From: Escherichia phage Sortsne
DNA: 41,912 nucleotides
Sequence record: NC_048178.1
Reading direction: 5' to 3' (one strand)
A program made the position numbers and the translations under genes. Shown here one piece after another: positions 5,830 to 41,136 of the stretch; position 1 is the first letter of the stretch, and each line of letters opens with the position of its first letter. The notes under the pieces are model-generated. The model did not search any database. It was not told the origin of the DNA and saw only the letters and a program-made list of their open reading frames with translations.

Positions 5830-5858
5830 GAAAGGGGCCTTGCGGCCCCTTTTTTTAT
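5829..5858. terminator. bidirectional intrinsic terminator between lysis cassette and Ig-like gene
   Basis: AAAGGGGCC-TTGC-GGCCCCTTT stem-loop followed by T7, A-rich on the other side; convergent gene ends. Confidence 0.8.
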
Positions 5859-7756: not shown

Positions 7757-7789
7757 CTTTCTGTCTCCTCGTGTTGGTGTGATAAAGAA

Positions 7790-7818
7790 TATAACAAAGG
7801 ATAAGTTTACCCGCAAGA
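7790..7818 (-). promoter_or_regulatory. sigma70-like promoter TTGCGG-N17-TATATT, flanked by ATCACGAAA and TTATCACA motifs
   Basis: Minus-strand reading; immediately downstream of an intrinsic terminator. Confidence 0.45.
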
Positions 7819-15652: not shown

Positions 15653-16198
15653 ATGGCATCACGCGGCGTAAACAAGGTGATTCTGGTCGGCAACCTGGGA
15701 CAAGATCCCGAAGTGCGTTATATGCCGTCCGGCGGAGCGGTGGCGAACATCACGATCGCCACGTCCGAAAGCTGGCGCGATAAGCAAACGGGCGAACAAA
15801 AGGAGGTCACGGAGTGGCATCGGGTCGTATTGTTCGGGAAGCTGGCCGAAGTCGCCGGGGAGTACCTGCGCAAAGGGTCACAGGTTTACATCGAGGGCCA
15901 GCTTAAGACGCGCAAGTGGACGGACCAGCAAGGCGTCGAGAAGTACACGACGGAGGTCGTCGTGAACGTCGGCGGTACGATGCAAATGCTCGGCGGGAAA
16001 CGTGAAGGCGGTCAGTCTGGGGGGAATGGTGGCCCGACTCACTCCGGCGGTGGCAATTCTCGCCAATCTCCGGGCCGTAGCGCGCCGCAAAACCAAAATA
16101 CGGGCAAGGGTAGCGGGTCAGGGTCTGCGCCTCGTGGTGGCGCTTCTGGGGCGTCTAACGAGCCGCCGCAAGATTTCGACGATGATATCCCGTTTTAA
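15653..16198 (+). CDS. ssb: single-stranded DNA-binding protein
   Basis: N-terminal OB-fold ([35 protein letters not shown]), Gly-rich linker and C-terminal acidic tail DDDIPF. Confidence 0.9.
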
Positions 16199-17221: not shown

Positions 17222-17252
17222 AGAAAGGGGCCAATTAAGGCCCCTTTTTTTA
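17222..17252. terminator. bidirectional intrinsic terminator between recombination operon and tailspike
   Basis: AAAGGGGCC-AATTAA-GGCCCCTTT plus T-run; convergent gene ends. Confidence 0.8.
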
Positions 17253-19625
17253 TGGTCCGCCAGTGATAGGCGGGCGGGTCTGGATCTGCTTATACATCCT
17301 GATCTGAGTCTCCGCCGGGATCGCCGTCTGGATGGCGTCCGCGATATCGACCACGATCGGCGCGCCGGAGTCACTCGGCGGCGTCTGGTACGGAGGGCGG
17401 ACGACCGTCGTCACGAGGTCAGCGCCACCAGCGCCAGCTTTCGGAATGACGATCCGCGTCCCAGGGGACAGCATGGTGGTATAGAGCCACGGCGATCCGG
17501 TAGAGGTCCCGTTAGGCGTTAACCACTGCGTGATCGACTTCTGGCCCACGCTCGCGGCCATGATCTTCGCCTGGTTCCCGGTCGGGAAGTACGCGCCAGC
17601 CTCCACGACGAGGTAAGGCTTAAGCCCCACGATCCCGTTAGGTCCGTTAGCCGGATCGTTGCCGCCGTAGTCGTAAGTCCAGACCAGATCGCCGCGGTCG
17701 AACTCGCGGCCACAGGGGAAGAAGTTGCCATATCCGCCGTGGGCCGTGATATCCGGGAAAAACTGTTTAGACACGTTTCCCAGCATAGCGCCCAGCGAGC
17801 CGTCGATGTTGACATACATCCGGGCCTCAATATTGGAATTGACAATATTGATATTGCTGTAACGGCACTTGCTCCACGCCTGCGTCGTCGGGTTCCGGCT
17901 GTTAACGTTGACCATGTTCAGGACGGATTTAGTCCTGATATATTCCCCGTTCGAGGTGGTCCCGCCGCTGGAGTCGTCGCCCACCGCGTCCAGTTCCCAG
18001 CATTGAACGTTAAACATATCAAGCTGAGTCGCCACGCCGAAGATCGTCAGTTTGTAACAGTCGATATTCTCCAGTTTTACCCGGTTATCGTGGGGGGATC
18101 GGTTAACGCCCGGCGTCGGGTCGCCACGGTCAGCGGCCACAGGGCAGTAAACACGGCCCGTTTTCGTGCGGACGTTGCGGATCGTATAGTTGCGCGGAGA
18201 GGACAGACGCGGCGGCCCCCATTCCATATGGATAATGCGGAGATCGTGGACGTCGGTCGAGGCGTTGGTGACAGGCTCCCCGTCCACGCCGTCGATCACG
18301 AAGTCTTTACAGCCCGACGTGTAGATCCCGGCGGTGGTGATGCCAGTCCCCACGGACATATTCACATCCGGGTTAACGGTCACATTCTGGATCGTGAAGT
18401 CGCGCCCCATTTCAACGTGAATACACTGTTTACACTGGTTAACGAGAACGTTACGGATCGTGAAGTTGCGCGCGTAGTTCTCGTCAGGCAGATCCCAGCC
18501 ATAAGGGCCTTTACCCGCGATACCGATCCCCAGGCCCCAGTTAGAAGCGAAGTTGCCGGGGTTAATGCCGTTGATGTTGTCGAGGAGGATATTTTCGATA
18601 ACGCAACCATTTTCAAAGCATTGATGGACCACGTTTAGCTCGATCCCGTCGCCCTGCATGTTAACAAATGCGAGGTTGCGGAAGATGCCGCGAGACATAA
18701 ACGCATTGCCGCCCTGGTGAATGATCCCGTTATAGCCGTTCGTAAACAGGCATCCGTCCATCTCGATCGTTCCCCAGATCTGAGGACCGCCGGACTGTAC
18801 GCCCTGGATGTTGACATGAGAGTTATTGCTCCCCCCAGGGATGCCGTCATACCAACAATCAAACATCCGCACGTCGCCGCCGTCATGGCGCATACGGTGG
18901 CCGTTACGGCCTAACACGTTTCGTAAGGTCGTATTCTGACACCACATCGAACGACCGCGCCACGTACCGCCGATCACCTCGCAGTTAACAAAGCGGGGAT
19001 CGTTGCCCGTCAGCGTCCAGTCGCCACCACGGATCACGATGTTACTCGCGGTAAGGATGCCGTTAGTCGTGCCTTTCCAGCCATGCGCCCAGACTTCGAG
19101 GCCGTTCGCGCTGGCGTAGTCAAACATCGCCTGTAAAGCCTGCGTTACGCTGGTGTATTCCGGCTTGCCGACGAAGTTCCACGGCGTCACGTAGCCGTTT
19201 AGCTGCTCCTGCACGTTGCCGACTGGCGTCCCGACATAGCTCGCGCCCTTCCCGGAGATCAGGAGGCTCCACATCTGCGCCGGGTCGTATTCGAACAGGT
19301 TCCCGAAATAGTATTGTTGGACGTCGTTACGGTCGTAAACGGCCATAGACGCCTCGATCTTCGTGACCAGCTTCACCACTTGACCATTCCAGATCGGGAA
19401 GCCGACGACGTTCGTCCGTACAGGCTGCGGGATAGGGGTCAGGGTTAGATCCTCGTTCTCGACGTAGATCTGGACCTGGTTCTCCGGGTTCGTCGGGTCG
19501 GTGTCGGCCTTTCCTGCGTAGATCTTCCCGTCCACCAGCGAGGCGAATCGGTCCTTACGAAAGAACGGTTGCGACGGCATCCCTAACGTGCTGAATACCT
19601 CAAGTTGTGCCATGAATCGCTCCAT
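17250..19625 (-). CDS. tailspike protein (P22-type N-terminal head-binding domain plus beta-helix receptor-binding/depolymerase domain)
   Basis: N-terminus GKIYAGKADTDPTNPENQVQIYVENED...NGQVVKLVT...SMAVYD closely parallels the P22 tailspike N-domain as recalled; the rest has beta-helix-like repeats. Confidence 0.85.
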   Translation of the reverse strand: MERFMAQLEVFSTLGMPSQPFFRKDRFASLVDGKIYAGKADTDPTNPENQVQIYVENEDLTLTPIPQPVRTNVVGFPIWNGQVVKLVTKIEASMAVYDRNDVQQYYFGNLFEYDPAQMWSLLISGKGASYVGTPVGNVQEQLNGYVTPWNFVGKPEYTSVTQALQAMFDYASANGLEVWAHGWKGTTNGILTASNIVIRGGDWTLTGNDPRFVNCEVIGGTWRGRSMWCQNTTLRNVLGRNGHRMRHDGGDVRMFDCWYDGIPGGSNNSHVNIQGVQSGGPQIWGTIEMDGCLFTNGYNGIIHQGGNAFMSRGIFRNLAFVNMQGDGIELNVVHQCFENGCVIENILLDNINGINPGNFASNWGLGIGIAGKGPYGWDLPDENYARNFTIRNVLVNQCKQCIHVEMGRDFTIQNVTVNPDVNMSVGTGITTAGIYTSGCKDFVIDGVDGEPVTNASTDVHDLRIIHMEWGPPRLSSPRNYTIRNVRTKTGRVYCPVAADRGDPTPGVNRSPHDNRVKLENIDCYKLTIFGVATQLDMFNVQCWELDAVGDDSSGGTTSNGEYIRTKSVLNMVNVNSRNPTTQAWSKCRYSNINIVNSNIEARMYVNIDGSLGAMLGNVSKQFFPDITAHGGYGNFFPCGREFDRGDLVWTYDYGGNDPANGPNGIVGLKPYLVVEAGAYFPTGNQAKIMAASVGQKSITQWLTPNGTSTGSPWLYTTMLSPGTRIVIPKAGAGGADLVTTVVRPPYQTPPSDSGAPIVVDIADAIQTAIPAETQIRMYKQIQTRPPITGGP

Positions 19626-19651: not shown

Positions 19652-22600
19652 TTATTGCTGCTCGTCGGCTGCTGCTGCCCTGCCTGCTCCGCCACCTCCG
19701 CCAGCAAGGAAGCCCACGATCCCGGCCCGGCTGATCGCGGCCTGCTCGTCCGGCGTCATGGAGGCGATCAGCGCCTTCCACTCCGGGGAGTTAGCGGCGG
19801 CTTGTTCAGCCTCATTGACGAAGGTCCGGCCCGCCGGGGTTAGCTTGCCGGAACTCTGCGCCGCTGCCGCCTGGAGAAGTTTATTAAAGTTTCCCCCAGA
19901 AAGCACGTTATCCGCCAGCACAGATCGAGGGACGCGGGTCGCCCGGCTTGCTGCCTGCGCTGCGGACAATGCGGCGTTACCTGCCGGGCCTAACGTGTAC
20001 AGCGCGGCGGCATGTTTCCCCAGGAAGCCAGCGGCCCCGTACAGCTTGGACATTACGCCACCAGCGCCGGGATCGTTAAATCGCTTCATAAACTCACTGA
20101 TCGATCCGGTCGAGGTGGTGAATCGCTGGGCGCGATCGATGCCCTGAGCCACGCGGTAAATCTGCATAAAGCGGCGTTGTTGCTCGCGGGGTAAATGCTT
20201 CATTACGGAGCCTAACGTCCCGTTAGCCTGGGCGGTGCGATACCAGTCCACAAAGCCCGGAATGGCGAAGTTATTCCGCGCGCTACGTGCGCCCAGGGTA
20301 CGCTCCAGCGCGTTAGCCACTACGTCGGACTTGAGGCTGTCCGGGGTTGCGGCCATCAGCTTGTCCCAGTCCCTCGCGCTGCCGCCCTTCTTGCCCAGGT
20401 TCAGGATCGCACTCTGCACTTTCCCGGTGATCGAGTTGTCGAGGTTTTTCCCCAGGACTTCGAGGGCCTGAGTCTCCAGGTCCTTACGGCGTTTAACAAG
20501 CTGTTTCCCCACATTCCAGTCGTCCGCCGCGCCATACTGGGCCGCGACTCGCTCCTGGTCGTCAGTCAGGCGGGCATAAAGCTGTTTAAGCTGCGCCGGG
20601 ACTTCATCCTTAAACGGGCCGTTTTTCTTGTTCAGCGCCTCGCCGACCTGCTTCCGAAGGGTGTCCAGTCGGGCGTAAGTCGGGATCGTCGAAACACTCT
20701 GATCAGGGAGTCCCGTCACTGGGTCCACCTTCCCAGGCTTCGGAGCCATCCAGTCGAGCGCCTTTTTCTCTGCTGCGGAAAGGTACTCGTCCCCGCCTAA
20801 CTCGTCAGCCTTCGCCGTCAGATAATCCACGGTGCTGTCCGGCCTTACTTCGGCGTTGCGGGGGATCTTGGCGCTCACGGCGTTATAAGCCTTTTCCGCC
20901 TCGTCGCCCAGTCCGTCGATAATGGCGCGGGTGCGGGCGGCAAACGCCTGATCGATGGTCTGCGCGTTCATGCTGGTCATGCTGTCGATCAGATCGTCGG
21001 CCTTCTCGCTTAAACGCGCGATCCCGTTTAACTGCTGCGTTTCCAGGTTGGAGCCTTTGGCGCTAACAAGCTGCTGGATCGTGCTGCGGAAATTGGTATC
21101 ACGAGCATAAGCCGCCGGGGTCAGTTGGTCCTCAATCCCCAGATCGCGGGCGGTTTTCATCAGCTTTTTATCGACGTCGGCCATGTTCGCCAGATCGATC
21201 GCCTCGTCAGACGCGCGGAGCGTCTCACCGTTCGCGCCCTGTACGTTACGATCGGGGGTGAGTCGGAACTTGCTCGCATCACGCGCCACAGCGTCGGAAA
21301 TGCCCGCCTCGGACGCCTGGGTGGATCGTGCTGCATCTGCCGCCGCGTCTGCACCAGCCCCACCAGCGGCCCCAGCGCCTTCACCAGCGCCCCGGACGGC
21401 CTGCCACAGCTTACCAGCCCCGCCGATGATAGCTCGGCCCACAGCCTCGCCAGCGGGCGCTAGTGCGATGTTGGTCAGCGTCTCCTCCGGGTCCCCACGG
21501 CCAGCGGCCACCGCACCAGGAACGGCGCGAGCCGCCGGAGCGGCTACCCAGCGTTGGACGGCATCGGCGACGCGGGTCCCGAATTGAGCGACGTCCGGCG
21601 CGTCACGCACGATCCCCATAAGCTCCTCGGCTGCTGCGGCCTTACGCGGCCCCGGCAACGGCGCGAGCATATCGCCGATCAGGGTCCCGATCTGCGCGTA
21701 TTTGTCCGTCGGCCCCTCAAATCCGGGAATCCCCCCAGGGGTGATAGTCGGCGCTTGGGTGCTCTCGTCCACAATCCCCAGCCCCTTCCCGGCATCGGTC
21801 ACGGCGTTGGAGATCATGTTCGCCAGCGAGATCGGCGTGTTCAGGAGGTCGATCCCGGTCTGGGCCACGCCTCGCGCTGCCTGTTCGACGCTGCCGCCTA
21901 ACTTCCGCCAGTTTTCGGCGGCTTCGGCGTTAGGGTCGGTTTGTCCGGGGAGATTAGCTCCGCCCGGCTCTCCGTTACCGTTCGGCGCTGCCGCCCCTTG
22001 TGCGCCATCAGATCCCGCTTGATTAGGTGCATTGCCAGCGGCGACGGCTGCGACTTGTTGATCGGCCCCTCCGGCTCCGGCGGCTGCTCCATCTCCTCCA
22101 GTTCGGGGGGAATATTCCCCGAATTGATCGAATACATTACCAGACTGAGACGAGCCGCCAGCGCGGGCGCTGGTTGCACGTTGAACAGGTTCAGCGCTAC
22201 CGCCAGGCCCTCGGCCAGTCCACTCATTAAAACGTTCATCCACATATTGACGCCCCTCCGGGCCAGGTTGTGCCTGTCCCGCGATCTGTTTATCTACATT
22301 GCCGGGGCCGTCGTGGTAAGCCTGGAGCGCGAGGCCCCAGTCTCCGTAACGCTGGTACATCTGGGAAAGGTACTGCGCCCCGGCGTCAGCCTGGAGCGCG
22401 GGATCGCGCTGTAGCTCGTTCCAGTTGTACCCCATACCCTCCGCCGTTGGCCTCATGACCTGAGTCAAGCCATAAGCGCCAGCGGAAGAACGCGCGGAGG
22501 TCGGATCAGCTTCGCCGCCCGTCTCCTTGCTCGCCAATGCCTGCATGATGCCAGCGGGTAGTCCCCATTTAGCCCCGGCGCTCTCAAGTAGATCAGCATA

Positions 22601-22699
22601 GCCGTCGCCCGTCGATCCCGGTTGCGTAGGAATCTGATTAGGGAGCGCCGTCGCAGATTTCGGCATGTTCTGATCGAATTGGTCGAATACGTTAGCCAT
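19652..22699 (-). CDS. ejection/internal virion protein with N-terminal lytic transglycosylase (SLT) domain
   Basis: 1015 aa; SLT motifs ALASKETGG, GAYGLTQVM, AYHDGPGNV; long Gly/Ala-rich helical remainder. Confidence 0.8.
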   Translation of the reverse strand: MANVFDQFDQNMPKSATALPNQIPTQPGSTGDGYADLLESAGAKWGLPAGIMQALASKETGGEADPTSARSSAGAYGLTQVMRPTAEGMGYNWNELQRDPALQADAGAQYLSQMYQRYGDWGLALQAYHDGPGNVDKQIAGQAQPGPEGRQYVDERFNEWTGRGPGGSAEPVQRATSARAGGSSQSGNVFDQFGEYSPRTGGDGAAAGAGGADQQVAAVAAGNAPNQAGSDGAQGAAAPNGNGEPGGANLPGQTDPNAEAAENWRKLGGSVEQAARGVAQTGIDLLNTPISLANMISNAVTDAGKGLGIVDESTQAPTITPGGIPGFEGPTDKYAQIGTLIGDMLAPLPGPRKAAAAEELMGIVRDAPDVAQFGTRVADAVQRWVAAPAARAVPGAVAAGRGDPEETLTNIALAPAGEAVGRAIIGGAGKLWQAVRGAGEGAGAAGGAGADAAADAARSTQASEAGISDAVARDASKFRLTPDRNVQGANGETLRASDEAIDLANMADVDKKLMKTARDLGIEDQLTPAAYARDTNFRSTIQQLVSAKGSNLETQQLNGIARLSEKADDLIDSMTSMNAQTIDQAFAARTRAIIDGLGDEAEKAYNAVSAKIPRNAEVRPDSTVDYLTAKADELGGDEYLSAAEKKALDWMAPKPGKVDPVTGLPDQSVSTIPTYARLDTLRKQVGEALNKKNGPFKDEVPAQLKQLYARLTDDQERVAAQYGAADDWNVGKQLVKRRKDLETQALEVLGKNLDNSITGKVQSAILNLGKKGGSARDWDKLMAATPDSLKSDVVANALERTLGARSARNNFAIPGFVDWYRTAQANGTLGSVMKHLPREQQRRFMQIYRVAQGIDRAQRFTTSTGSISEFMKRFNDPGAGGVMSKLYGAAGFLGKHAAALYTLGPAGNAALSAAQAASRATRVPRSVLADNVLSGGNFNKLLQAAAAQSSGKLTPAGRTFVNEAEQAAANSPEWKALIASMTPDEQAAISRAGIVGFLAGGGGGAGRAAAADEQQ

Positions 22700-24018
22700 T
22701 AAAGCCCCTCCGGTAAGAATCCGTATTTTTCCTTAAACTGCTGCTTAACGCTAGGGGTCGGGTTCGAATACAGATAATTAATGGCCGCGCTCGCGTTGGT
22801 CGGGTCCATCCCCCCAGACGAAAGCTGTCCGATTGCCGATTGTTTGGCGTCGTCCTGCTGGATATCCCGGCGGTAGGACTCCACGCGCCCGCCCTGCGAC
22901 TTCTCGATCGCGTCCTTGCCCTTGCTGAGTGCGGTCACGTAGCGCGTCATAACGTCCTTAAGCTGCTGCTCGTTCATGGTGCGCGGGTCTGCGTTGATCA
23001 GCGCCTGAGCGGCTGCGCGGCCCTCCTGCTCGGTAACGGGACCAGTACCGCGTAAAGACTGAATACCCGCGACGCGGGCCTGATCTTTAAGCTGGTTAAA
23101 CTGATTCATGATCTCCGCCGTGGCATCGCCGCCGCCAGTCACGAAAGAGGCCCCACGGTTCAGCGCGCCCAGGTTGCCCGTCACGTAGGCCAGATCCTTA
23201 CGCTGGAGGAGTCGCTGGGCCTGGTCGATCGCCGTGGTGATCGGGGCGAGTTGCGTCTCGTAGGTCTGCAAAAAGTCGCGCTTCGTGTTCAGGCTGTCCT
23301 GTTGCATTTTTTGCTGCTGCTGCGCGTACTTCTGGCGCTCAATATCGTTCCTTTCCTGCGAGATCCGCGTGTTGAGGCGCTCGGTCTGGAGGCCGATATA
23401 TTTCAGGTTACGATCCGCCGCTTTCGCTGAGGCGTCCAGGTCCTGCCCCCGGATCGTGGTCTGGTTCTTCATCGTCTCTTTGGCGTAGTCCAGTTGATCC
23501 TTACTGGTATTGCTCGCCAGGTGGAGAGCCTGCACCGAACGACGGAAGCCCTCCGGGTCAGACGTGGCCGACTGGAGCGCGCGCTGAGGATCGATCCCCA
23601 TCGCCTGGAGTGCCTGCGCGTTCTGCTGCACAAATGCCGCCGCCTGCTCCGGTCCCTGCGAGAGAGCGACGTCCGCCTGGCTGGCAAGGCTTGCGCCCTG
23701 CTGCTGGCGCATCGTGTCCAGAAGGCCCAGGCGCTTCTGTAACGCCTCGATCTGGTTCGGGTACTTGTACGCCAGATCCTGGAGTTTCGACGGGTCCCCG
23801 GCTGCGGCCTGCCAGTCAGCATTAAATTGCTTCATCTGCTCGGCCTGGAGTCCTGCCTGTTTCATGGCCTGGCCCCGGATCTGGTTCTCCTGAAATTGCG
23901 CCGTGTTCTGCTGGATCTTGCCGTAGTTGTTCAGCGTGTCTTGTGCGCCCTGTTGAATGATCCCGATATTCTGCGCAAAAGATCCGATGTTGGGATCTGC
24001 TCCGAAGATAGCCGCCAT
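22699..24018 (-). CDS. ejection protein (gp20-like by position)
   Basis: 439-aa Gln-rich coiled-coil protein in the P22-like ejection cluster; 1-nt start/stop overlaps. Confidence 0.55.
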   Translation of the reverse strand: MAAIFGADPNIGSFAQNIGIIQQGAQDTLNNYGKIQQNTAQFQENQIRGQAMKQAGLQAEQMKQFNADWQAAAGDPSKLQDLAYKYPNQIEALQKRLGLLDTMRQQQGASLASQADVALSQGPEQAAAFVQQNAQALQAMGIDPQRALQSATSDPEGFRRSVQALHLASNTSKDQLDYAKETMKNQTTIRGQDLDASAKAADRNLKYIGLQTERLNTRISQERNDIERQKYAQQQQKMQQDSLNTKRDFLQTYETQLAPITTAIDQAQRLLQRKDLAYVTGNLGALNRGASFVTGGGDATAEIMNQFNQLKDQARVAGIQSLRGTGPVTEQEGRAAAQALINADPRTMNEQQLKDVMTRYVTALSKGKDAIEKSQGGRVESYRRDIQQDDAKQSAIGQLSSGGMDPTNASAAINYLYSNPTPSVKQQFKEKYGFLPEGL

Positions 24019-24668
24019 TAGATAAAGCTCCCGAACATGTTACCGAAAGAGTTAACGTCTTGCGCTGCCCCCTGAGAGAGCGCGTTCTGGCTGTACCCGG
24101 CCACCTGCCACGGCAAGGCCGCTTTAGCCGCGTTAACGTTGCCTTTCTGAGACTGGAGGCCCAGAAGGGTGTTAGTGCCTTGTGCTGCGGTCGCAGACTG
24201 CGCGCCAGCGCCGGACAGGCCCACGTTAACAAGCCCCATAAGCTGGTTATACATATCCTGCTGCTGGGCCGTCTGCTGCGCGAGATAGTTCTGGCCTAAC
24301 GTCGGCGCGATCGATGCCAGCGCGTTATTAGTGGCCGAACTCCCCAGCCCGCCCGTCGCTTCCGCTGCGGCCAGTTGCGATCGTCGTGCTGCCTCCTCCG
24401 ACTGCGCGAACTCCTGCCCGCCGTAATACTGGGAGAGCGACTTCTCTCGATCGATCGGCTGGCCCGCCAGCGCCACAAGGTCGGGTAGTGCATTGGTCCC
24501 GGCTTCACGGAATGGAGACAGCCAGGCGTCCTGTCGCTCCATTAGATCGCGCTGCCAGTCCATCTGTTTGTCGAGGCTTTTCTGTTGCTGCTTCGCCGCC
24601 TTGTTCGCGCCGATGCCGCCTAAGATACCCCCGACGGCGTTACCGATCCCACTGATAGCTCCGCCCAT
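24018..24668 (-). CDS. ejection protein (gp7-like by position)
   Basis: 216 aa, Gly-rich N-terminus and Gln/Ala-rich body; assigned by position. Confidence 0.5.
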   Translation of the reverse strand: MGGAISGIGNAVGGILGGIGANKAAKQQQKSLDKQMDWQRDLMERQDAWLSPFREAGTNALPDLVALAGQPIDREKSLSQYYGGQEFAQSEEAARRSQLAAAEATGGLGSSATNNALASIAPTLGQNYLAQQTAQQQDMYNQLMGLVNVGLSGAGAQSATAAQGTNTLLGLQSQKGNVNAAKAALPWQVAGYSQNALSQGAAQDVNSFGNMFGSFI

Positions 24669-28189: not shown

Positions 28190-28217
28190 AAAAAAGAGGC
28201 CACAAAGGCCCCTTTTC
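28190..28217 (-). terminator. intrinsic terminator after major capsid gene
   Basis: GC hairpin followed by U8 on minus strand directly downstream of coat stop codon. Confidence 0.6.
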
Positions 28218-28235
28218 TCATAGTGCGCGGCTCGC

Positions 28236-29498
28236 TTACGCGGGCTGCTTCGGTAATACCAGGCCCACATATTCCGGGACCAGTACAGTAGTACCGTACA
28301 GCGTGGTAAAACGAGCGGTACACGCGCCGCTGATATGGTTGAAGTCGTAGGACATGATCAGAGTCGCGCCCTGTTTGGTGGTGCTGCGCATCACCTTCGG
28401 CCCCATATCGGACGGGAACGCCAGATTACCCCACATCAATTCCACGGAGCCGTCGGCCCATGCCAGGTTAGCGTTAGCCGCGACTTTGTTGATCACGGTC
28501 AGCGCTGCGCCGGAGGCTGCGTTCGCGTCCACGTTGGAGTAAGGACGGGAAGCCAGATCCGCGTTATCCGGCGGGAGGATCTGCGGGGTGATCGTGATGT
28601 TGTTGCCGGACACTTCCAGGACGCGGAACGTCTGGAGGTAGTCGGTCGTGTCTTTGCTGATCTGGTGTACAGAGTGAACGCCCGCGATAGTGAAGGCGTC
28701 GCCCGCTTCCAGACCGTGACCAGCGGAGACAGCGATCACGCCCTGGCGGTTATCCACCGGGATATCGTTCGCGTTCTTCGATACGACCTTATGCGCCGGG
28801 GCGGCGGTAAGGGTGATCGCACCAGTCGGACCAGCGCCCAGACGCGGGGAGATATCGGTCTTGTAAGCGTCGAAGCTCGCAATATCCGGGATCTTCGCTT
28901 TTTCAAAGGCGGATTGGTTGATGCCGGAGCTATACGCGCGGCCAGCCAGTTCTCCCGCGATATCCTTATAGGAGAAGGCGTTCAGGAACGCGCGACGGCT
29001 AACGCCCGCCGGGATGCCGATCGAGGTCATGAGGGCGTCCAGTTCTGCGAAGCTGTTCCACAGATCTTTACCCAGCGTACCAGTCGAGTTATCGCCGACG
29101 GTCACGACGTTAGTCGCGTAACGGCCTGCGGTGTTGATCAGGTCGGAGTCGATCTTCGCTGCGATACGCTGCGCGGCTGCGCGGCCCATTTCTTTCATGT
29201 ACTCCGGGTTACGCATTTCGCGCGCGTCCAGAGTCCACAGGACGTTCTGAGGCTCTTTATAAGCGGACGGGACCAGACGCTCGACGATATCGGTCGGACG
29301 CTTACCAGTCAGATCCAGACCTTCCAGGAGGTCGGCGTGGTAACGCTGCGGGCGGTAAATTACATCGCCTGCGCGCTGCATGGTCTTATCTTCCGGGCGG
29401 AACTTCGCCGCGTTCTGGGAGACTACGCAAGAGGCGTCGAAGCTCTCCACGTACTCCTCGAACATGATTTCAATCGTTTTTACATGCTGGTTAGCCAT
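28236..29498 (-). CDS. major capsid (coat) protein
   Basis: 420 aa, position after scaffold as in P22, followed by an intrinsic terminator; size matches P22 coat. Confidence 0.75.
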   Translation of the reverse strand: MANQHVKTIEIMFEEYVESFDASCVVSQNAAKFRPEDKTMQRAGDVIYRPQRYHADLLEGLDLTGKRPTDIVERLVPSAYKEPQNVLWTLDAREMRNPEYMKEMGRAAAQRIAAKIDSDLINTAGRYATNVVTVGDNSTGTLGKDLWNSFAELDALMTSIGIPAGVSRRAFLNAFSYKDIAGELAGRAYSSGINQSAFEKAKIPDIASFDAYKTDISPRLGAGPTGAITLTAAPAHKVVSKNANDIPVDNRQGVIAVSAGHGLEAGDAFTIAGVHSVHQISKDTTDYLQTFRVLEVSGNNITITPQILPPDNADLASRPYSNVDANAASGAALTVINKVAANANLAWADGSVELMWGNLAFPSDMGPKVMRSTTKQGATLIMSYDFNHISGACTARFTTLYGTTVLVPEYVGLVLPKQPA

Positions 29499-29529
29499 GC
29501 TCTTTTCTCCACCGATGGATTAAAAATGG

Positions 29530-30477
29530 TTAGTCTTTTTTCAGCTTTTCTTTCATGGCGAAATAATCCGTCCAGTCCCCGGACTGCTGCGCCTTAGCGC
29601 GCGCTGCCTCAAGTTGGCCGATATTTTTCGCCCCGCCGCTTCCCTTAACTTTGGGCGCGCCGTTAACGTCCCGTTTCACCTTCGGCGCGGTCCCTGCTCG
29701 GCGATCGATATCGGCGATTAGGTAGCCCAGGCGAATATGGTCGCTAGTATAGGCTTCTTCGATCTCCTGTCGCAATTTTTCATTGCGGGCCAGTGCCATA
29801 ACGGTAAGCGTCGGTTTCTGGCTGTTCAGGAGTAAAGCGGCCTGTAACGGCTCCGGCAATTCTGCCACGATCTCCTCGGCTCGTTCATAGCCTGCGATCT
29901 TCTTGATCGCGGTCGCGCGTTCTTCCCGGTAGACCTTGCCCTTTTCTTCGAGTTTGGTCTGGAATACCTGCGCGCGCTGCTGCTGTTCCTGCTGGCGGGC
30001 TTCGATCTTGCCTTTCTGCTCGTGCCATTCGTCCAGCTTCTCCGCGAGTTTCTCCGGGTCCCAGTCGATCCCCTCGTCGCCTAACTGCGGCTTAGGAGGT
30101 ACTTCGAGCGGGAGCGGGCCGGATTGCTGCGGCTGCTGCTGGGTGGATTGCTTAAGAGCGCGTTTTTGCTCGCGGATCGTCGCGCGTAGGCGCTTCACCG
30201 TTTCGCTGTCTTGTTCCTGATCATCGTCGTCGGTGGCTGGAGCGGCCAGGGCCTCGCCGTCGAAGGTAAACTCCTCCTCGTCGTCCTCGCCTTCGTTACC
30301 TTCGCCGCCTTCGCTGCCTTCGCTGCCTTCGCCGTCGTTGTCGTCGGTGTCGGTGTCGGTGCTGCGGTCGGTGTCGGTGTCGTTGTCGCGGTCGTCGTCG
30401 TGGTTCTGGTTGTCCAGATCCGCGTCGGTGGTGGTTACTTCTTCGTTGTCGTTGCCTACGTCCTGATTTCCGAACAT
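29530..30477 (-). CDS. scaffolding protein
   Basis: 315 aa, highly acidic repetitive N-terminus (TDTDTD, EGSEGSEG), coiled-coil body, basic C-terminus; directly upstream of coat. Confidence 0.65.
   Translation of the reverse strand: MFGNQDVGNDNEEVTTTDADLDNQNHDDDRDNDTDTDRSTDTDTDDNDGEGSEGSEGGEGNEGEDDEEEFTFDGEALAAPATDDDDQEQDSETVKRLRATIREQKRALKQSTQQQPQQSGPLPLEVPPKPQLGDEGIDWDPEKLAEKLDEWHEQKGKIEARQQEQQQRAQVFQTKLEEKGKVYREERATAIKKIAGYERAEEIVAELPEPLQAALLLNSQKPTLTVMALARNEKLRQEIEEAYTSDHIRLGYLIADIDRRAGTAPKVKRDVNGAPKVKGSGGAKNIGQLEAARAKAQQSGDWTDYFAMKEKLKKD
30290..30420. repeat. intragenic short tandem repeats (CCTTCGCYG and GTCGGT units) in the scaffold gene
   Basis: Encodes the acidic EGSEGSEG / TDTDTD low-complexity tract. 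Confidence 0.5.
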
Positions 30478-30600
30478 GTATAGATCCTCTCTCGTTACGC
30501 GATGTATTCGCCCATCGGTGGCGCGAGTAAGTGTAAGCGAGGATCGGGGGGAATTGCAAACAGGGGAGATCGCGGTTAACGATCCCCCAGAGGTGGCGGG

Positions 30601-30990
30601 CTATTTCTTGTCTAACTGGTGTCTTAAGCGGGCGACTTCACCATACAAAATCCGAATGTGATCGGCGAAGAACTTCGACTCCTCTCCCGGCGTCACGTGG
30701 ATCGGGATCATGTAGTACGTCGCCCGGCCCTTCGCTGGCTCGTCCGGCGTCGGCTCCGTCACTTCCGCCTCGGAGTAGGCGATCCGGTACTCCGCGCCCT
30801 GCGGCGGGTTAGGCTTCCGGTCGCCCGGCTTCATTTCCTTGAGGTAGGCCAGATACTGCTCCATCTGCTCGTCCGTCGGGGCAAACTCCACAAAGCCATC
30901 GAGCGGATCGTGGAGCGGCTCGCCTTCGACCTCCCGGATCTGGCGGGCCATGACGCCGCCTAAAAAGTGGTAACGGTGGGTCATTTTCAT
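30601..30990 (-). CDS. hypothetical protein (portal-scaffold insertion, gene 3 of 3)
   Basis: Start refined to ATG at 30990 (ATGA overlap with upstream stop). Confidence 0.4.
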   Translation of the reverse strand: MKMTHRYHFLGGVMARQIREVEGEPLHDPLDGFVEFAPTDEQMEQYLAYLKEMKPGDRKPNPPQGAEYRIAYSEAEVTEPTPDEPAKGRATYYMIPIHVTPGEESKFFADHIRILYGEVARLRHQLDKK

Positions 30991-31403
30991 TTGTTGCGCG
31001 CTCCGATCATGGCTTGCCAGGTAAACACGACCGTATCGGAAAGAAGCTCGTCCACTCCCTCCTCCTCCATCTGCTCGTAAAGTCCATCGAGAGCGCCGGG
31101 GATCTGCTCCCATAGGGCTTTACGTCCGGCCTCGATCTGCTCCGCCGTCGGCTGGAGTTCCACCTCGATCGGGGCCGGAGCGACTTCGCCCGCCTTCACC
31201 TGCGGCTCCGCGTTGGTCATGAGGGCCTCGACCTGCATCGCCACGATAGCGATCGCCATGCCATACGCCGCCAGATCCTGCTCGGTCGGCTGCTGAATGA
31301 AACGGCCAGCCAGTCGGGCCTCGTGCTGCTTCACCAGCGCCTCGATCCCCATTTCTTCGGCCTGGGCCAGCATGATCGCGCGCATTGCTTTTGCTTCGTT
31401 CAT
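30987..31403 (-). CDS. hypothetical acidic protein (portal-scaffold insertion, gene 2 of 3)
   Basis: 138-aa ORF preceded by GGCCCC-CACA-GGGGCC hairpin and CCAACCAACGAGAGAGAC leader. Confidence 0.45.
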   Translation of the reverse strand: MNEAKAMRAIMLAQAEEMGIEALVKQHEARLAGRFIQQPTEQDLAAYGMAIAIVAMQVEALMTNAEPQVKAGEVAPAPIEVELQPTAEQIEAGRKALWEQIPGALDGLYEQMEEEGVDELLSDTVVFTWQAMIGARNK

Positions 31404-31453
31404 CGTTTTGTCTCTCTCGTTGGTTGGTTAGGCCCCCACAGGGGCCGGGTTAG

Positions 31454-31897
31454 TTATGCGTGGCCTTGCGGCTGCGCGCCCAGAAGGTCGAGCGTCGGCT
31501 GGATATCTTCCTCCGCTGCCGGGTGCGGGATATGGAGGCCGGGGGACTGTTTGCCCGCCTTGAGGTGGGTCATAACGGCGTCCCAGATTGCCACGACGTC
31601 GGCCAGCGCGTAGTCCGCCAGGATCTTCTCGTGGATGGCCTGAGCGCCGTCCTCGTTGTTGAACTCCAGGACCTGCTCGACGGTCGGCATGGTGTTGTTA
31701 AAGCGCTGCATCACGCGGGCCATTACAACCGTCCCCACGCCGCGAGATAAAAACACGTTGCCGTCGTCGTGGGACAGCATCACCGCGATCTCCGGCTCGT
31801 CTGTCTCCGGGTGGTGCGCCAGGGCCAGCGTCAGGAGGCCACCGCGTGGGCCGTGTTCGAATACGCGGGCGGATTTGGTGGTGGTGATCTCTTTCAT
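31454..31897 (-). CDS. hypothetical protein (portal-scaffold insertion, gene 1 of 3)
   Basis: 147-aa ORF with ACGGAG RBS. Confidence 0.45.
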   Translation of the reverse strand: MKEITTTKSARVFEHGPRGGLLTLALAHHPETDEPEIAVMLSHDDGNVFLSRGVGTVVMARVMQRFNNTMPTVEQVLEFNNEDGAQAIHEKILADYALADVVAIWDAVMTHLKAGKQSPGLHIPHPAAEEDIQPTLDLLGAQPQGHA

Positions 31898-31937
31898 CTT
31901 GTGCTCCGTTGTTTATCACTGTTTCGTTGTTTCTTGT

Positions 31938-31956
31938 GACAAAGAATAGCCCGGAC
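31938..31956 (-). terminator. hairpin after portal gene (attenuator or processing site)
   Basis: AGCCCGG-CAAGT-CCGGGCT followed by AUUCUUU on minus strand. Confidence 0.3.
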
Positions 31957-31997
31957 TTGCCGGGCTGTAAAGTGGTTTTTTAACGAAAGTGATATTT

Positions 31998-34232
31998 TTA
32001 TTGGGCGGCGTTGTCCAGCGTCCGATCGGCCTGCTGCTGCGCCTGGCGTTCTGCCAGTTCGCGGGCGGCGTTGTCGTTCTGCTGCTGGTGTCCCTGGCCC
32101 ACGGAGCGGAGGAACAGGTCCGCCTGTTTGTGGGCGTCGTCCTTCTCCGCCGTGACGTACTTTTGCAGGATGGCGATCGCGGACAATAGCTGTTCCTGCG
32201 GGATCGCTGCGGCTTCGGCCATCGTTTTGACGGTCTGGGCCTGCTTAAGCTGCGCGCCGCTGCTGGAGTCCTGCGCCTTGAGTTGCAGTTCTGCGCGCTT
32301 GTTCTCCTGCTCCATCACTGCCGCCTGCCCCTGGGCCGCTACGCCCTGCGCTGCGATCATCTGCGGGTCCGGCTGCTGCTGTTGCGCCTGCTGGGCCTGC
32401 TCGACCATCGCCTTTTCCTCGTCCGTCTGAGGCTGCACGATGCCAGAGAGGAGCATCTGTTTACGGCTGTACTCTTTGAAGTCCTGCAAGCCTTCGCCGT
32501 CCATGTTCGCAATGATCAGCGACATGACGATCGCCGCGTTCGGGTCGTTCGGGGCCATCGTGGCGAGGAGGTTCGTCAGACTGCGGACCGTTGCCTGGCG
32601 CTTCGTCTGGGAGGACTCGCCAACGTCGGCGACAACCTCATATTTTCCGCGCTTGAGGTCGTTAATCGCGATCGCCTCTTTGGTGGTGCGGTCGATCACT
32701 TTCCCGGTCATTAACACGAGGTCGTCGGTCCCGTCCTCGTTCTCGATCCTCACGTAGTTCTCGGAGCCGTAGACCTTGCGGGCGGCGGAGAGGTAGACGC
32801 GGCCACAGTGGCGGAGGGTTTTCGCCAGGTTGTCCATATAGAGCGCGCCCTGGCCGTCCATGCGGGCGAAAATTGCCTCCACGGTTTCGGTCGCCAGGTT
32901 CGACGGGAGCGCCTCAAGCTGGGAGGAGCCGACGATCTGCTGGATGGTCCCGCCCGTGTACTGTAGGACCGCTGCCAGCGCCGGAGAAAGCGGCGTTGAT
33001 GGCGTGTACCCTAACGGGCCAGCCTGCGCCACGACCTCACCAGAAGCGTTACGGAGCGATTTAGCGGGCAAGTATGCCGGGCGGTTCGTGTTACGTTCCC
33101 CCCAGGCGTCCGCCAGCTTGCCGGGAATCATATCAATATCCATGATCGGGATATTGTCGCCGCCTGCCTGCGCTGCCTGGTCGGCCATCATGGACACGAT
33201 CAGGTTTTCCAGTCGCTGGGCGTCCATTGCGAGGGTGGCGTGGCCCATTACGCGCTCCTGGTTGTCGATAAACGAGCGGCGCGCGTTGAAGATAAAGACC
33301 GGAATCCAGTCGAACGGGATCAGCTTCGGCTCCTCGATCCACTCTCCGCCGGAGAACAGCCCGCAATAAACCTTACGGCGCTTAACCTTACGGCTCTTGA
33401 GTTTCTTCCAGCCTGCGGCCTTTAGCTCGTCCTCGATCAGATCGATATCGTCCTCGTCGTAGACCTCCGTCTCCCCGGTGAGTGGGTTCTTATAGGAGAT
33501 CACGGTGGTGTCCTCGATCTTCACCTCGTACCAGCGGGCGATATAGATCGCGTCCTTCGTGGCCCAGTCGAAATTTTTCCCGGTGTTGAGTTCCATCAGG
33601 TCCTCCGGGAGCATCGCGTCCGGGTACTCCTCCTCGTACTTGTCCGGGGTCATGCTGAATAGCTCGGCCATCCACATGGCATCCGAACGATCGTACATTT
33701 TGGAGTCGGGATCGACGAACAGGCACGAGGCCGGATCATAGATCGGGTAAAACGTGATATGCCGCTCCTCGTTGTCCGGGTCGAATTGGTCCTCCAGTTC
33801 GGTGTCCATGCGAAACGCGCCCATCCCGCCGTCGATCCCGTCGCCGTAGGTGTTATCGACGGACTCCGGCCCGTTGCTCTCGTTGTAGTCGGCGCGGAAT
33901 TTGCCGTTTAGCTTGTCGGCTAACTCCTCGCTGGCCTTGTCGTCCTTCGGACGGAATACCACGGAGACACGGTTCAGACGGTAGTCGGCGATCAGGCGGT
34001 CACACTCTCGCGCTACTTTGTTAAGCTCGAATCGAGGGTATTTCTCAAAGCGATCATCATCCATGCGAAAGCCGCTGTTAGTGCTGCCTTCCCACTGCGC
34101 GCCCGGTACGCGGACAAAGCGCTGGGTTTCGATAATCTTCTTGCGGCTCTGCTCCTCGCTGCTGATCGACTGGCTGAGGCGCTTACGTGCGCTCTCGTGC
34201 CAGTTCTGGGCCGACTTCGTTACTCGTGCCAT
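31998..34232 (-). CDS. portal protein (P22 gp1-like) with Gln-rich C-terminal barrel
   Basis: 744 aa, size and position as in P22-like phages; long Q/A-rich helical C-terminus. Confidence 0.85.
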   Translation of the reverse strand: MARVTKSAQNWHESARKRLSQSISSEEQSRKKIIETQRFVRVPGAQWEGSTNSGFRMDDDRFEKYPRFELNKVARECDRLIADYRLNRVSVVFRPKDDKASEELADKLNGKFRADYNESNGPESVDNTYGDGIDGGMGAFRMDTELEDQFDPDNEERHITFYPIYDPASCLFVDPDSKMYDRSDAMWMAELFSMTPDKYEEEYPDAMLPEDLMELNTGKNFDWATKDAIYIARWYEVKIEDTTVISYKNPLTGETEVYDEDDIDLIEDELKAAGWKKLKSRKVKRRKVYCGLFSGGEWIEEPKLIPFDWIPVFIFNARRSFIDNQERVMGHATLAMDAQRLENLIVSMMADQAAQAGGDNIPIMDIDMIPGKLADAWGERNTNRPAYLPAKSLRNASGEVVAQAGPLGYTPSTPLSPALAAVLQYTGGTIQQIVGSSQLEALPSNLATETVEAIFARMDGQGALYMDNLAKTLRHCGRVYLSAARKVYGSENYVRIENEDGTDDLVLMTGKVIDRTTKEAIAINDLKRGKYEVVADVGESSQTKRQATVRSLTNLLATMAPNDPNAAIVMSLIIANMDGEGLQDFKEYSRKQMLLSGIVQPQTDEEKAMVEQAQQAQQQQPDPQMIAAQGVAAQGQAAVMEQENKRAELQLKAQDSSSGAQLKQAQTVKTMAEAAAIPQEQLLSAIAILQKYVTAEKDDAHKQADLFLRSVGQGHQQQNDNAARELAERQAQQQADRTLDNAAQ

Positions 34233-34247: not shown

Positions 34248-35870
34248 TTAGCGGTTGCTCGGCACATTATAGCCGTTGTAATCGTCATTTTTCACGCGCT
34301 CCGGCGGCTGCATCAACATGCAAAGCACGTCGGCCATGCCAGGCGATTTCATTTTTAACTTGGTGCGCATCTGCGGCTTAGGCATACGCTGGAATTTCCC
34401 CTCCGTGTTGTAAACGCGGGGAATACGGCATACCTCGGCGCGTAGCTTCTGCATATGCTCCCCGATCCCCTCGCTGGAGAGGCTGATCAGCTCGTCCGGG
34501 TTCACGTACTCGCCGTGGACCACGGCCCGGTAAGTCTTTTCAAAGCGGCGGCGTAACAGGTAGATATCCTGGGAGCCTCGGTTCTTAAAAGCGTTCTGAT
34601 TTTTCAGAAGGTTGTCGCCTTCGGTCTTGTTATTTAGCCACGTATCAAGCTCCACCAGCCCGTCCGGCTGGTTCACGCCATCCCCGGCGTTATACCCCGA
34701 CACGAGGGTGTTAGTCGAGGCGTAAGCGTCGGTGATCTGGCGGCGGAGGCCAGCGCCCAGCCCTGCCCGGTCCCAGATAAACGCCTCCACGCCGTGATCC
34801 TTCGCCGTGTTCACGGCCTTGTCCGCTGCGTCGTTGGCGTCGCCTTCGAACCACTCCTCCATCCACGTGACCACGGAGCCGTAACGCTCGCCGTATGCCT
34901 TGTTATCCGCCCCGACGTCCGCCGGGTCGAGTGCGCCGATCCTCATGCCGGACGGCTTAAAGCCTAATTTCACATGAGCGTCGATCGCCGCGTCGAACCA
35001 CTCCGCCGGGATAATGGCATCCGGTACGCTGTCGTTAAAATGCCCTTCCCACACGTGATCGAACAGCGCGCGGGAGAGGGTTTTCCGGTCGAACTCCATT
35101 TCCGCCCGGAGTTCTGGGGGAAACCACGGATTATCCGACCAGTTAACGCGGATCACGAGGTGGAGATCGTCCTCGTAGATGCCGTCACGAAGGAGATCCT
35201 CCCAGAATGGATTGATAAATCGCTTCGAAAACGCATCCTCTGAGGAGCCGGGGTTCGCGGTGAATAGCATCATGCCGCCGGATTCGCGCATGGTCGGCGT
35301 TAGCTGGCGGATCGACTCCTCGGAAAAGGTCTGCGCCTCCTCACCCCAGAATCGACGATAACCGAACGCGGATTTAACCCCGGCGGGGTCGCGGGCCATC
35401 CCTTTAAAGCGGATGATCGCGCCGTTCTCGTGTCGGATCTCCTTCTCCAGTACCTCGAAGCCGTCCAGGTTCGACGCCTCGATCCGGTTGACGAGTAGCG
35501 GGTGTACGGAGTCCTTGATCGATGCCTGGTACTCACGAAGGCACAGGGCGCTCGTCGCCTCGTCGTGGGCGTCCGCGTCGATGATTGCGCCGACGGTGAG
35601 CGACTTCCCGGAGCCTCGGCCACCGACCAGGATCACAAAGCGCTTAGGCCGTAACAGGATCGGGGTCAGGACCTCCGCGATCGTCAGGTCGTGCGGGTCG
35701 CTGGTGTATACCCACTCGCCGTTAACCTTCTTCATGTTGTAGCAGTGGGCCGCACTGGTCCCATCCGGGCGGTAGACGCCGTAAACCAGCCCGCCCTCCT
35801 TCGCCTTATAGCGGAGTTGCGCCTCCAGTCGTGCGAGGCGCTCCAGCGCCTCCTTACGATTTCTTGCCAT
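34248..35870 (-). CDS. terminase large subunit
   Basis: Walker A VGGRGSGKS near N-terminus; C-terminal acidic RNase H-like nuclease region; upstream of portal. Confidence 0.85.
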   Translation of the reverse strand: MARNRKEALERLARLEAQLRYKAKEGGLVYGVYRPDGTSAAHCYNMKKVNGEWVYTSDPHDLTIAEVLTPILLRPKRFVILVGGRGSGKSLTVGAIIDADAHDEATSALCLREYQASIKDSVHPLLVNRIEASNLDGFEVLEKEIRHENGAIIRFKGMARDPAGVKSAFGYRRFWGEEAQTFSEESIRQLTPTMRESGGMMLFTANPGSSEDAFSKRFINPFWEDLLRDGIYEDDLHLVIRVNWSDNPWFPPELRAEMEFDRKTLSRALFDHVWEGHFNDSVPDAIIPAEWFDAAIDAHVKLGFKPSGMRIGALDPADVGADNKAYGERYGSVVTWMEEWFEGDANDAADKAVNTAKDHGVEAFIWDRAGLGAGLRRQITDAYASTNTLVSGYNAGDGVNQPDGLVELDTWLNNKTEGDNLLKNQNAFKNRGSQDIYLLRRRFEKTYRAVVHGEYVNPDELISLSSEGIGEHMQKLRAEVCRIPRVYNTEGKFQRMPKPQMRTKLKMKSPGMADVLCMLMQPPERVKNDDYNGYNVPSNR

Positions 35871-37689: not shown

Positions 37690-37757
37690 TGTGATCTCTC
37701 TCGTGGGTGGAAACGGCCCCAGCATAGCGCCGGGGCAAACATCATGCAAGCGTTAAA

Positions 37758-38986: not shown

Positions 38987-39032
38987 AGTCTTGTCTCTCT
39001 CGTTGGTTGGCCCCGTTGCCGGGGCGGTTGGA

Positions 39033-39340: not shown

Positions 39341-39613
39341 TTATTCTTTATCATCCCATCGATCGCGGTCGAATAGTACGCCCTTTCGGAAGTCGTCCCA
39401 CGCGAAGTACGGCCACACGACCAGGGACAGCGACGCGAACAGGACCACGATCAGCGCCACGAGGAAGCCCAGAAGGGGGAGGAGGGCCGGAGGGACTGCC
39501 CGCGCCTCACGTGCCAGGCTGCGGCCCAGGAACGCGCCCGCGCCCTGGTATGCCTGCATTACGATGTAAGTCACGCCCAGCGCGACGTAAGAGAGTATCA
39601 GTTCGATAAGCAT
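39341..39613 (-). CDS. small membrane protein
   Basis: 90 aa, two predicted TM segments. Confidence 0.45.
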   Translation of the reverse strand: MLIELILSYVALGVTYIVMQAYQGAGAFLGRSLAREARAVPPALLPLLGFLVALIVVLFASLSLVVWPYFAWDDFRKGVLFDRDRWDDKE

Positions 39614-41024: not shown

Positions 41025-41136
41025 GGCTTCGTCTCTCTCGCTGGTGGGCTGCACCGTTGCCGCCCTTGATGTGATAAAGAATATCTCAGAGGCGGCAAGG
41101 TGTCCAGCAAAATATCACGAAAAGATTAAATTATTT

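Follow-up and report, generated by a model that had tools for sequence, protein, structure and literature searches.

What are three small genes of Escherichia phage Sortsne doing between its portal and scaffold genes, and do their products help to build the virus particle or act on the host? We addressed this question for positions 30601-31897 of sequence record NC_048178.1 (hereafter, "the window" is the whole stretch of 41,912 nt that was analyzed), where a first-pass annotation had described a three-gene insertion and had proposed either novel virion or injected proteins, or an anti-defence/moron cassette. Sortsne (MK651787), the type species of Sortsnevirus, is a podovirus with a GC content of 60% that was isolated on E. 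coli MG1655. The reading we favor, with somewhat more confidence than doubt, is that this segment is one allele of a mosaic cassette of accessory, non-structural genes carried across a whole clade of phages, and that the cassette probably serves to deal with the host instead of building the virus particle.

The segment runs exactly from the ORF-C stop to the ORF-A start on the minus strand, and lies within the following series of genes, given in order of transcription.

34248-35870, minus strand: large terminase (TerL)
31998-34232, minus strand: portal, 744 aa, the upstream flank of the cassette (Pfam P22_portal, 3.3e-156; phrog_156)
31454-31897, minus strand: ORF-A, 147 aa, pI 5.2, orphan family
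30987-31403, minus strand: ORF-B, 138 aa, pI 4.35
30601-30990, minus strand: ORF-C, 129 aa, pI 5.7, its ATG overlapping the ORF-B stop as ATGA
29530-30477, minus strand: scaffold, 315 aa, the downstream flank of the cassette (phrog_648 at 9.7e-72)
28236-29498, minus strand: coat (Pfam P22_CoatProtein, 6e-76)

The flanking genes are true homologues of those of the P22 assembly cluster (genes 3-2-1-8-5) and follow the same order, but in P22 and its temperate relatives, portal and scaffold are not separated by any gene. The portal-scaffold gap is 1520 bp in Sortsne vs 13 bp in P22, 13 bp in HK620, 90 bp in Sf101, and 102 bp in Ralstonia phage RSK1; none of these four phages has any gene in the gap, and their assembly clusters contain no homologue of A, B, or C at that position. 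The gene plan that the first-pass annotation had given for P22-like phages is thus correct, and because scaffold directly follows portal in that plan, the three genes are extra relative to it. That homologous head modules do without the cassette argues for an accessory, host-directed role.

A, B, and C are real genes, found at the positions and with the lengths first proposed. Their GC contents at third codon positions (GC3; 0.83 for ORF-A, 0.76 for ORF-B, and 0.81 for ORF-C) are similar to those of portal (0.81) and TerL (0.78), and substitutions between ORF-A or ORF-B and their homologues show a third-position bias. B and C appear to be translationally coupled via the ATGA overlap. A 170-aa version of ORF-C, extending to 31113, was discarded because the codon-position GC of the 41 added codons (GC3 0.34, GC2 0.68) indicates the wrong frame. 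ORF-B is 100% identical to HOV35_gp43, a "hypothetical protein" of Sortsne, and the cassette genes are already in GenBank as hypothetical proteins; in the literature, we found no functional or proteomic work on these genes or on the clade, and no paper discussing the locus.

The cassette is a feature of the entire group. The relatives considered belong to Sortsnevirus, Murrayvirus, Giessenvirus, and Skarprettervirus or are unclassified, such as Lumpael and Kc237; the genomes retrieved were those of IME279, sortkaff, Kc237, IME_EC2, Lumpael, Skarpretter, C130_2, and Stutzerimonas phage STP9, along with a 42.7-kb contig filed under Enterobacter bugandensis and several IMG/VR and Logan contigs. 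A cassette of 1.1-1.9 kb with two to five small ORFs occupies the same place in each of the 17 relatives examined, and at least two cassette genes are retained in every one. The term "insertion" is therefore apt relative to P22, HK620, Sf101, and RSK1, but not as something specific to Sortsne. Local BLAST and hhalign sorted the genes into nine orphan families (A to H and one 102-aa singleton), which combine into at least 11 architectures across the 17 genomes, for instance A-B-C (Sortsne), A-H-B-D, A-B-D-E, F-B-C, F-G-B-E, A-G-B-C, D-C, and D-C-H. The order of slots is constant, i.e., [A|F] [G|H|singleton] B D [C|E], with one exception (H after C in contig L010). Close relatives have portals 84-89% identical and coats 74-85% identical while their cassette genes turn over: A is swapped for F, and C for E or for nothing (IME279), between phages with 84-89% identical portals. 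Some families are linked beneath this turnover, as hhalign relates C to E (probability 93%) and finds the C-terminus of B in a 122-aa protein of Lumpael and the C-terminus of D in a 103-aa protein of IME_EC2; it detected no link between A and D, between A and F, or between B and any other family.

Matches to A, B, and C by tblastn were restricted to the Sortsne-like clade, and viral and genome contig collections scanned for relatives of the three proteins yielded the same clade only. Among 185,579 GTDB species representatives, B homologues occurred on a single contig, phage-sized at 42.8 kb, and no integrated copy was found; these phages have been isolated as lytic. The first-pass annotation had considered that its view would fall if homologues with established assembly roles were present at the same position across P22-like phages. 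Same-position homologues do exist, in this clade only, and none has an established assembly role.

Two complete Sortsne-like genomes were filed under bacteria: L012/L013 (IMGVR_UViG_2751185941_000002, 42,714 bp), under Enterobacter bugandensis, and L033 (QFQS01000013.1, 42,764 bp), inside a "Cereibacter sphaeroides" metagenome-assembled genome. Since both have the size of a phage genome and stand alone without any sign of integration, they likely reflect contamination, a carrier state, or mis-binning.

Nucleotide comparisons between close relatives place the turnover at defined points. Contig L024 matches Sortsne at 90-100% identity in portal, ORF-A, scaffold, and coat, but at 38-77% from mid-ORF-B (about 31150, just past a linker described below) to the ORF-C stop, and at 100% again from the first intergenic base after ORF-C. 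This pattern points to a recent block replacement of exactly the B C-terminal domain and ORF-C (about 30601-31150). In contig L027, the intergenic regions bounding the cassette are 98% and 90-93% identical to Sortsne vs 55-87% for the adjacent coding sequence; on the portal side, the 98% identical intergenic region is flanked by a portal about 82% identical and an ORF-A about 68% identical. We take the turnover of genes on a conserved structural backbone, together with the recent replacement seen in L024, as further support for an accessory cassette.

These boundaries coincide with candidate regulatory elements. The two hairpin elements reported by the first-pass annotation, one after the portal gene and one inside the cassette, are both present. 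On the portal side, the features are as follows.

31943-31971, minus strand: candidate sigma70-like promoter, TTTACA-17 nt-TATTCT (promoter scan, 9/12 matches)
31948-31966, minus strand: post-portal hairpin AGCCCGG-CAAGT-CCGGGCT, followed by AUUCUUUG (-12.9 kcal/mol, z = -3.2)
31935-31948, minus strand: copy of a genome-wide motif, TATTCTTTRTCACA, forming the 3' part of the post-portal element

The hairpin fills the 17-nt spacer of the promoter candidate exactly. It is 100% paired in 7/7 distinct sequences, and at two of the pairs both bases have changed in a compensatory way (G-C to C-G or A-U); only 2/500 shuffles reached the observed pairing, and slid controls gave zero. The promoter candidate is likewise kept in all relatives, with a -35 of TTTACA or AAGACA, a spacer of 17 nt, and a -10 of TATTCT, or TATAGT in Skarpretter, where it represents an improved -10. 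Since the hairpin is followed by AUUCUUUG, it also resembles a weak intrinsic terminator, and we read the whole as a predicted composite terminator/promoter. No Rfam family matched within 29300-32300.

The motif TATTCTTTRTCACA has six genome sites (≤2 mismatches) vs 0.10 expected, five of them at equivalent positions in IME279. Besides the post-portal copy, the sites are the following.

3142-3155, minus strand: TATTCTTTRTCACA site
7778-7791, minus strand: TATTCTTTRTCACA site
14899-14912, minus strand: TATTCTTTRTCACA site
39342-39355, plus strand: TATTCTTTRTCACA site
41070-41083, minus strand: TATTCTTTRTCACA site

At 7778, 31935, and 41070, the site precedes a co-oriented start codon by 20-50 nt and is itself preceded, at about 17 nt, by a GACA-type -35; because of this spacing and -35, these three look like a putative phage promoter class. 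The sites at 3142 and 14899 coincide with the 3' ends of genes on the plus strand and may represent another kind of element.

On the scaffold side, the intergenic region (123-145 nt) is conserved whatever gene precedes it, and presents, in order, a hairpin, a promoter-like site, a leader element, and the scaffold start codon.

30564-30588, minus strand: post-cassette hairpin with a 10-bp stem, followed by CUGUUUGCAAUU (z = -2.4)
30530-30559, minus strand: scaffold/coat promoter-like site, TTGCAA-18 nt-TACACT (8/12 matches, below the scan threshold)
30496-30518, minus strand: scaffold 5' leader element CCGATGGGCGAATACATCGCGTA, with the stem CGATG/CATCG

In Skarpretter, L010, L011, and STP9, the element equivalent to the post-cassette hairpin takes the canonical form of a GC hairpin with six Ts after it. 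Across eight aligned relatives, the hexamers of the promoter-like site are conserved (TTGCAw/TTGCCA/TTTACA and TACACT/TAAACT) and its spacer is divergent. In the leader element (CCGATGGG...CATCGCGTA), the alignment of relatives shows an invariant stem and flanking bases, the loop alone being variable. The P22 scaffold is subject to post-transcriptional autoregulation; in Sortsne, the leader hairpin and promoter-like site (30478-30559) could form a control element for scaffold synthesis. With its promoter-like start, its terminator-like end, and a separate promoter-like site ahead of scaffold, the cassette has the predicted anatomy of its own transcription unit, and scaffold and coat appear to be separately promoted. 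Such autonomous-looking boundaries are a further reason for favoring an accessory unit.

Two side observations concern the neighboring genes. The first ~93 residues of the scaffold protein (30200-30477) are acidic and of low complexity (DNDTDTD..., GEGSEGSEGGEGNEGEDDEEE) and cannot be aligned among relatives: tblastn matches begin at residue 94, and 30296-30495 is unmatched in IME279. Separately, three related hairpin and T-run elements (AAAGGGGCC..GGCCCCTTTTTTT) occur at operon ends, the last of them after coat, comparable to the annotated terminator after the HK620 capsid gene and the stem-loop after P22 gene 5.

5829-5865: hairpin and T-run element
17224-17260: hairpin and T-run element
28192-28228: hairpin and T-run element, after coat

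Inside the cassette, the region between ORF-A and ORF-B carries a second type of element, a hairpin followed by a leader.

31431-31446, minus strand: A/B intergenic hairpin GGCCCC-UGUG-GGGGCC (-13.4 kcal/mol, z = -1.4), with no U-tract after it
31410-31427, minus strand: leader CCAACCAACGAGAGAGAC (translation-initiation region) before ORF-B
37696-37708, minus strand: leader copy
38995-39007, minus strand: leader copy
41033-41045, minus strand: leader copy

The leader matches at six places (≤2 mismatches) vs 0.94 expected, and repeats upstream of three minus-strand genes of the right arm, starting at 38986, 41024, and about 37694. In total, four genes are preceded by a GC hairpin and (C)CAACCAACGAGAGAGAC-N5-ATG(AAC), and the scaffold leader has a shorter form, AACGAGAGAGG. 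Relatives have a hairpin of different sequence in the same place between A and B. Sixteen segments of Sortsne are non-homologous to IME279, ORF-C being one; two others end within 13 nt of hairpin-leader copies, i.e., at 37683 and 41030, adjoining the leaders at 37696 and 41033. Because these segments end right beside two of the leaders, the comparison suggests that hairpin-leaders are junctions of modular exchange.

Next, we considered the proteins themselves. Apart from the unnamed phrog_35278, which ORF-B matches over its full length at 1.9e-73, scans of A, B, and C against Pfam, PHROGs, NCBIfam, and PADLOC returned no family, and PDB sequence searches with single sequences and profiles gave nothing significant, so that the initial impression of proteins with no recognizable motifs is borne out. 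Similar scans of families D-H in the relatives found only the unnamed phrog_35516, for G. A structure search of BFVD with the models of ORF-A and ORF-B had as its sole match ORF-A's own homologue in sortkaff. ORF-A has eight homologue clusters only, and those on contigs of at least 36 kb are all on phage-sized contigs; its alignment has 69 invariant columns, and its AlphaFold model (pLDDT 86, pTM 0.80) is a five-strand beta meander followed by five helices. ORF-C has three close clusters and belongs to the fast-evolving C/E superfamily, with an N-terminal motif RYHFLGG. Its homologues at 30-31% identity in Kc237, L005, and L012 occupy the same ATGA-coupled slot, more distant ones are found in Skarpretter, C130_2-like phages, STP9, and the Giessenvirus-like phages, and even a 12-member profile retrieved no Pfam or PDB match.

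ORF-B has 40 homologue clusters. It is acidic (net charge about -13), and in its AF2 model (pLDDT 78, pTM 0.48), whose secondary structure is entirely helical, an unstructured linker connects two lobes. Conservation is highest in the N-terminal lobe and in this linker, GE..PAPIEVxLQPT (GEVAPAPIEVELQPT in Sortsne), the alignment having 30 invariant columns, and at least four variants of the C-terminal lobe (about 55 aa) occur. When 1.84 billion representatives were searched with a B profile, this C-terminal domain also turned up by itself, in proteins of 52-65 aa (E 1e-13 to 7e-4) that match phrog_9004 and phrog_22904. Among them, SE1 gp15, LPSTLL gp21, and ZQ2 gp65 share with the ORF-B C-terminus a stretch of ~55 aa, 'LQPT..MI.AGI..L ... 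VVFIWQAM'. Unlike ORF-B, which adds a clade-specific N-terminal lobe and the invariant linker, these proteins stand alone in clusters of small genes. They come from lytic phages with unrelated virions (Guernseyvirinae, Segzyvirus, and Gamaleyavirus), where they are encoded away from the structural genes, amid small hypothetical genes that neighbor replication or nucleotide-metabolism functions: SE1 gp15 opens a divergent operon next to genes for a DNA-binding protein and a helicase/primase, LPSTLL gp21 comes after a helicase, and ZQ2 gp65 is flanked by thymidylate synthase and rIIA. The presence of this domain in non-structural small-gene clusters of unrelated phages is among the reasons for an accessory reading of the cassette.

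Several other identities for B were considered and rejected. Profile matches to Alba (E 0.002) and lambda Cro (E 0.04), over ~36-50 residues, were short and compositionally driven, and the Alba identity was discarded because B is strongly acidic and predicted all-helical, while Alba has an alpha/beta fold. No convincing transmembrane segment was found in A, B, or C, and A and C have no hydrophobic segment; a candidate helix in B (Kyte-Doolittle 19-residue maximum of 1.73) was rejected, as homologues carry R, S, or E there. The B linker was also considered as a T4-style capsid-targeting or protease-cleavage site and dropped, with no [LI]xE in register and no prohead protease in the annotated IME279 genome; [LI]xE is the T4-style cleavage motif, and P22-type heads are not known to have a prohead protease.

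Two further families are found in relatives. Family D, absent from Sortsne, is represented by IME279 gp39 (L001:4143-4613, minus strand) and has homologues in sortkaff, C130_2, STP9, KMB41, Kc166B, and Skarpretter. Its members end in ...DIPF (DKPLDIPF, DFDPDIPF, DADFDDIPF), matching the C-terminal tip DFDDDIPF of the single-stranded DNA-binding protein (SSB) of Sortsne (15653-16198, plus strand). The SSB tip is a typical host-protein-binding peptide, and family D proteins may serve to lure away or recruit the host proteins that interact with SSB. Family H (IME279 gp41 and L010) is 65-70% identical to a gene of unrelated ~48-kb siphoviruses, Citrobacter phage K1M and Salmonella phage CF-SP1; in K1M, this gene (L023:2992-3258) is part of a small opposite-strand island, with ParB-like and beta-clamp-like genes, inserted among the head genes. 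This sharing of family H across unrelated phages and the copying of the SSB tip by family D also argue for accessory, host-directed functions.

Taken together, these observations suggest how the cassette might work. The composite hairpin/promoter right after portal would start its transcription, the terminating hairpin would end the unit, and the separate promoter-like site would restart transcription for scaffold and coat, while blocks of a gene or half a gene would be exchanged between phages at the conserved intergenic elements. A, B, and C, which are small, acidic, and soluble (pI 4.35-5.7) with no catalytic motif, would most likely act by binding host or other phage proteins stoichiometrically, and would probably be dispensable for capsid building. 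Such binding would mean host takeover, anti-defence, or inter-phage competition, among which anti-defence is an obvious and plausible candidate. B may be an adaptor, whose N-terminal lobe and linker would contact a constant partner and whose C-terminal domain, with the coupled C or E protein, would form the variable part.

Several points weigh against an accessory, host-directed cassette. No similarity to any characterized anti-defence or takeover protein was found in PHROGs, Pfam, PADLOC, or, for A and B, BFVD. The promoters and terminators of the cassette are sequence predictions, and the post-cassette hairpin of Sortsne itself has a weak U-tract. Base composition is the same as that of the genome (GC 0.60-0.64 vs 0.60; GC3 0.76-0.83 vs 0.72-0.81 for the neighboring genes), hence nothing marks the cassette as recently foreign. 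Finally, the genes sit within the morphogenesis operon and point in its direction, and their fixed slot order, with B and C/E nearly universal, could mean a conserved role linked to head assembly.

These last features are also what would be expected if A, B, and C were clade-specific accessory proteins of head assembly, or internal proteins packaged in and ejected from the head, with B docking on portal or scaffold; the invariant linker PAPIEVxLQPT suggests a constant partner, possibly a phage protein, and the B and F homologues of Kc237 (QQV88632 and QQV88633; L002:4461-5146) are labeled "internal virion protein" in GenBank. That label appears unsupported, as the Kc237 paper contains no mass spectrometry, no virion proteomics, and no mention of internal virion proteins. 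Moreover, P22, HK620, Sf101, and RSK1 have homologous portal, scaffold, and coat proteins and no counterpart of these genes, A gives way to F and C to E or nothing at 84-89% portal identity, and siphoviruses and N4-like phages carry the B C-terminal domain away from their structural genes. The large ejection proteins also map elsewhere, to 19652-24668, by synteny with IME279 gp29-31. We thus regard a virion or assembly role as unlikely, although it is the strongest of the competing explanations. Among the functions proposed by the first-pass annotation, the moron or accessory cassette fits best, and we found no support for a novel virion or injected protein.

A more specific version of the accessory cassette can also be formulated. 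The block replacement in L024, which affects the B C-terminal domain and C together, and the stand-alone relatives of this domain lend indirect support to a scheme in which the B adaptor would dock on a host hub protein or on the phage's own portal or scaffold, and in which the C-terminal domain and C/E would be a rapidly swapped effector pair directed against variable host immunity that senses portal, terminase, or capsid proteins late in infection. In this scheme, the cassette would be a dedicated late anti-defence locus diversified by recombination at junctions similar to the PeSL elements discussed below. In this detailed form, we consider the scheme speculative and rather improbable.

Less probable still is that selection maintains a terminator/promoter insulator separating low-copy terminase and portal from high-copy scaffold and coat, the ORFs being selfish or near-neutral passengers gained through easy recombination. 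Gene content is indeed highly variable, the intergenic elements are better conserved than the genes, and the same pre-scaffold element follows whichever gene comes last. However, none of the 17 genomes has fewer than two cassette genes, GC3 and third-position-biased substitutions show that the frames are maintained, and both B (30 invariant columns, with a conserved N-terminal lobe and linker) and A (69) are constrained. Late superinfection exclusion or inter-phage competition in the style of the HK97 gp15 moron, whereby the products would shield the infected cell, draws on the late-operon position, the moron-like anatomy, and an allelic diversity that fits phage-phage conflict, but is equally doubtful: exclusion proteins of this kind usually reside in the membrane, whereas A and C lack any hydrophobic segment and the single hydrophobic helix of B (maximum 1.73) contains R, S, or E in its homologues, and no homology supports this reading.

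How does the cassette, read as an accessory, host-directed unit, compare to known systems? Morons, a concept introduced by Juhala and Hendrix, are known from lambdoid phages, with HK97 gene 15 and lambda bor and lom as examples. Similarly, the Sortsne cassette consists of extra genes between two genes that are adjacent in related phages, lies inside a late morphogenesis operon, is bracketed at the sequence level by promoter-like and terminator-like signals, and encodes products not needed in the virion plan of relatives. Unlike morons, it comprises several genes in ordered slots instead of one, and its base composition is that of the phage genome. In addition, the classical rationale of expression from a prophage is inapplicable, since no integrated prophage was found among the 185,579 species representatives. 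The cassette is therefore moron-like but not a classical moron.

Another parallel is provided by the PeSL terminator/promoter cassettes of T4-type phages, for which the same exchange pattern has been described (PMC2839356, PMC4122927). In both cases, short conserved elements combining a hairpin and a promoter (in Sortsne, a predicted one) are repeated in the genome, flank variable orphan genes, and mark the places at which genes have been replaced between close relatives. However, the sequences are unrelated and the Sortsne elements belong to P22-type podoviruses of 60% GC, so that we claim analogy and not homology. The hairpin lies within the promoter spacer in Sortsne and upstream of the promoter in PeSLs, and Sortsne has a second type of element, the hairpin and GAGAGAG leader, with no recognizable promoter. 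Overall, the cassette is an ordinary kind of feature with new members, and its protein families are orphans.

By itself, the cassette reveals no new mechanism, and its value is that of a well-delimited locus for functional screening in a group of virulent podoviruses of E. coli, Klebsiella, Salmonella, and Kosakonia that has been little studied. If our preferred reading is correct, this locus would be a compact and naturally diversified library of small host-targeting proteins, whose clear boundaries would ease the deletion or swapping of cassettes and make it a practical hunting ground for anti-defence and takeover functions. It would also offer an insertion site for payloads that leaves head assembly undisturbed. 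More broadly, these phages would then provide a second example, beyond the T4-like phages, of conserved hairpin/promoter junctions serving as sites of modular gene exchange.

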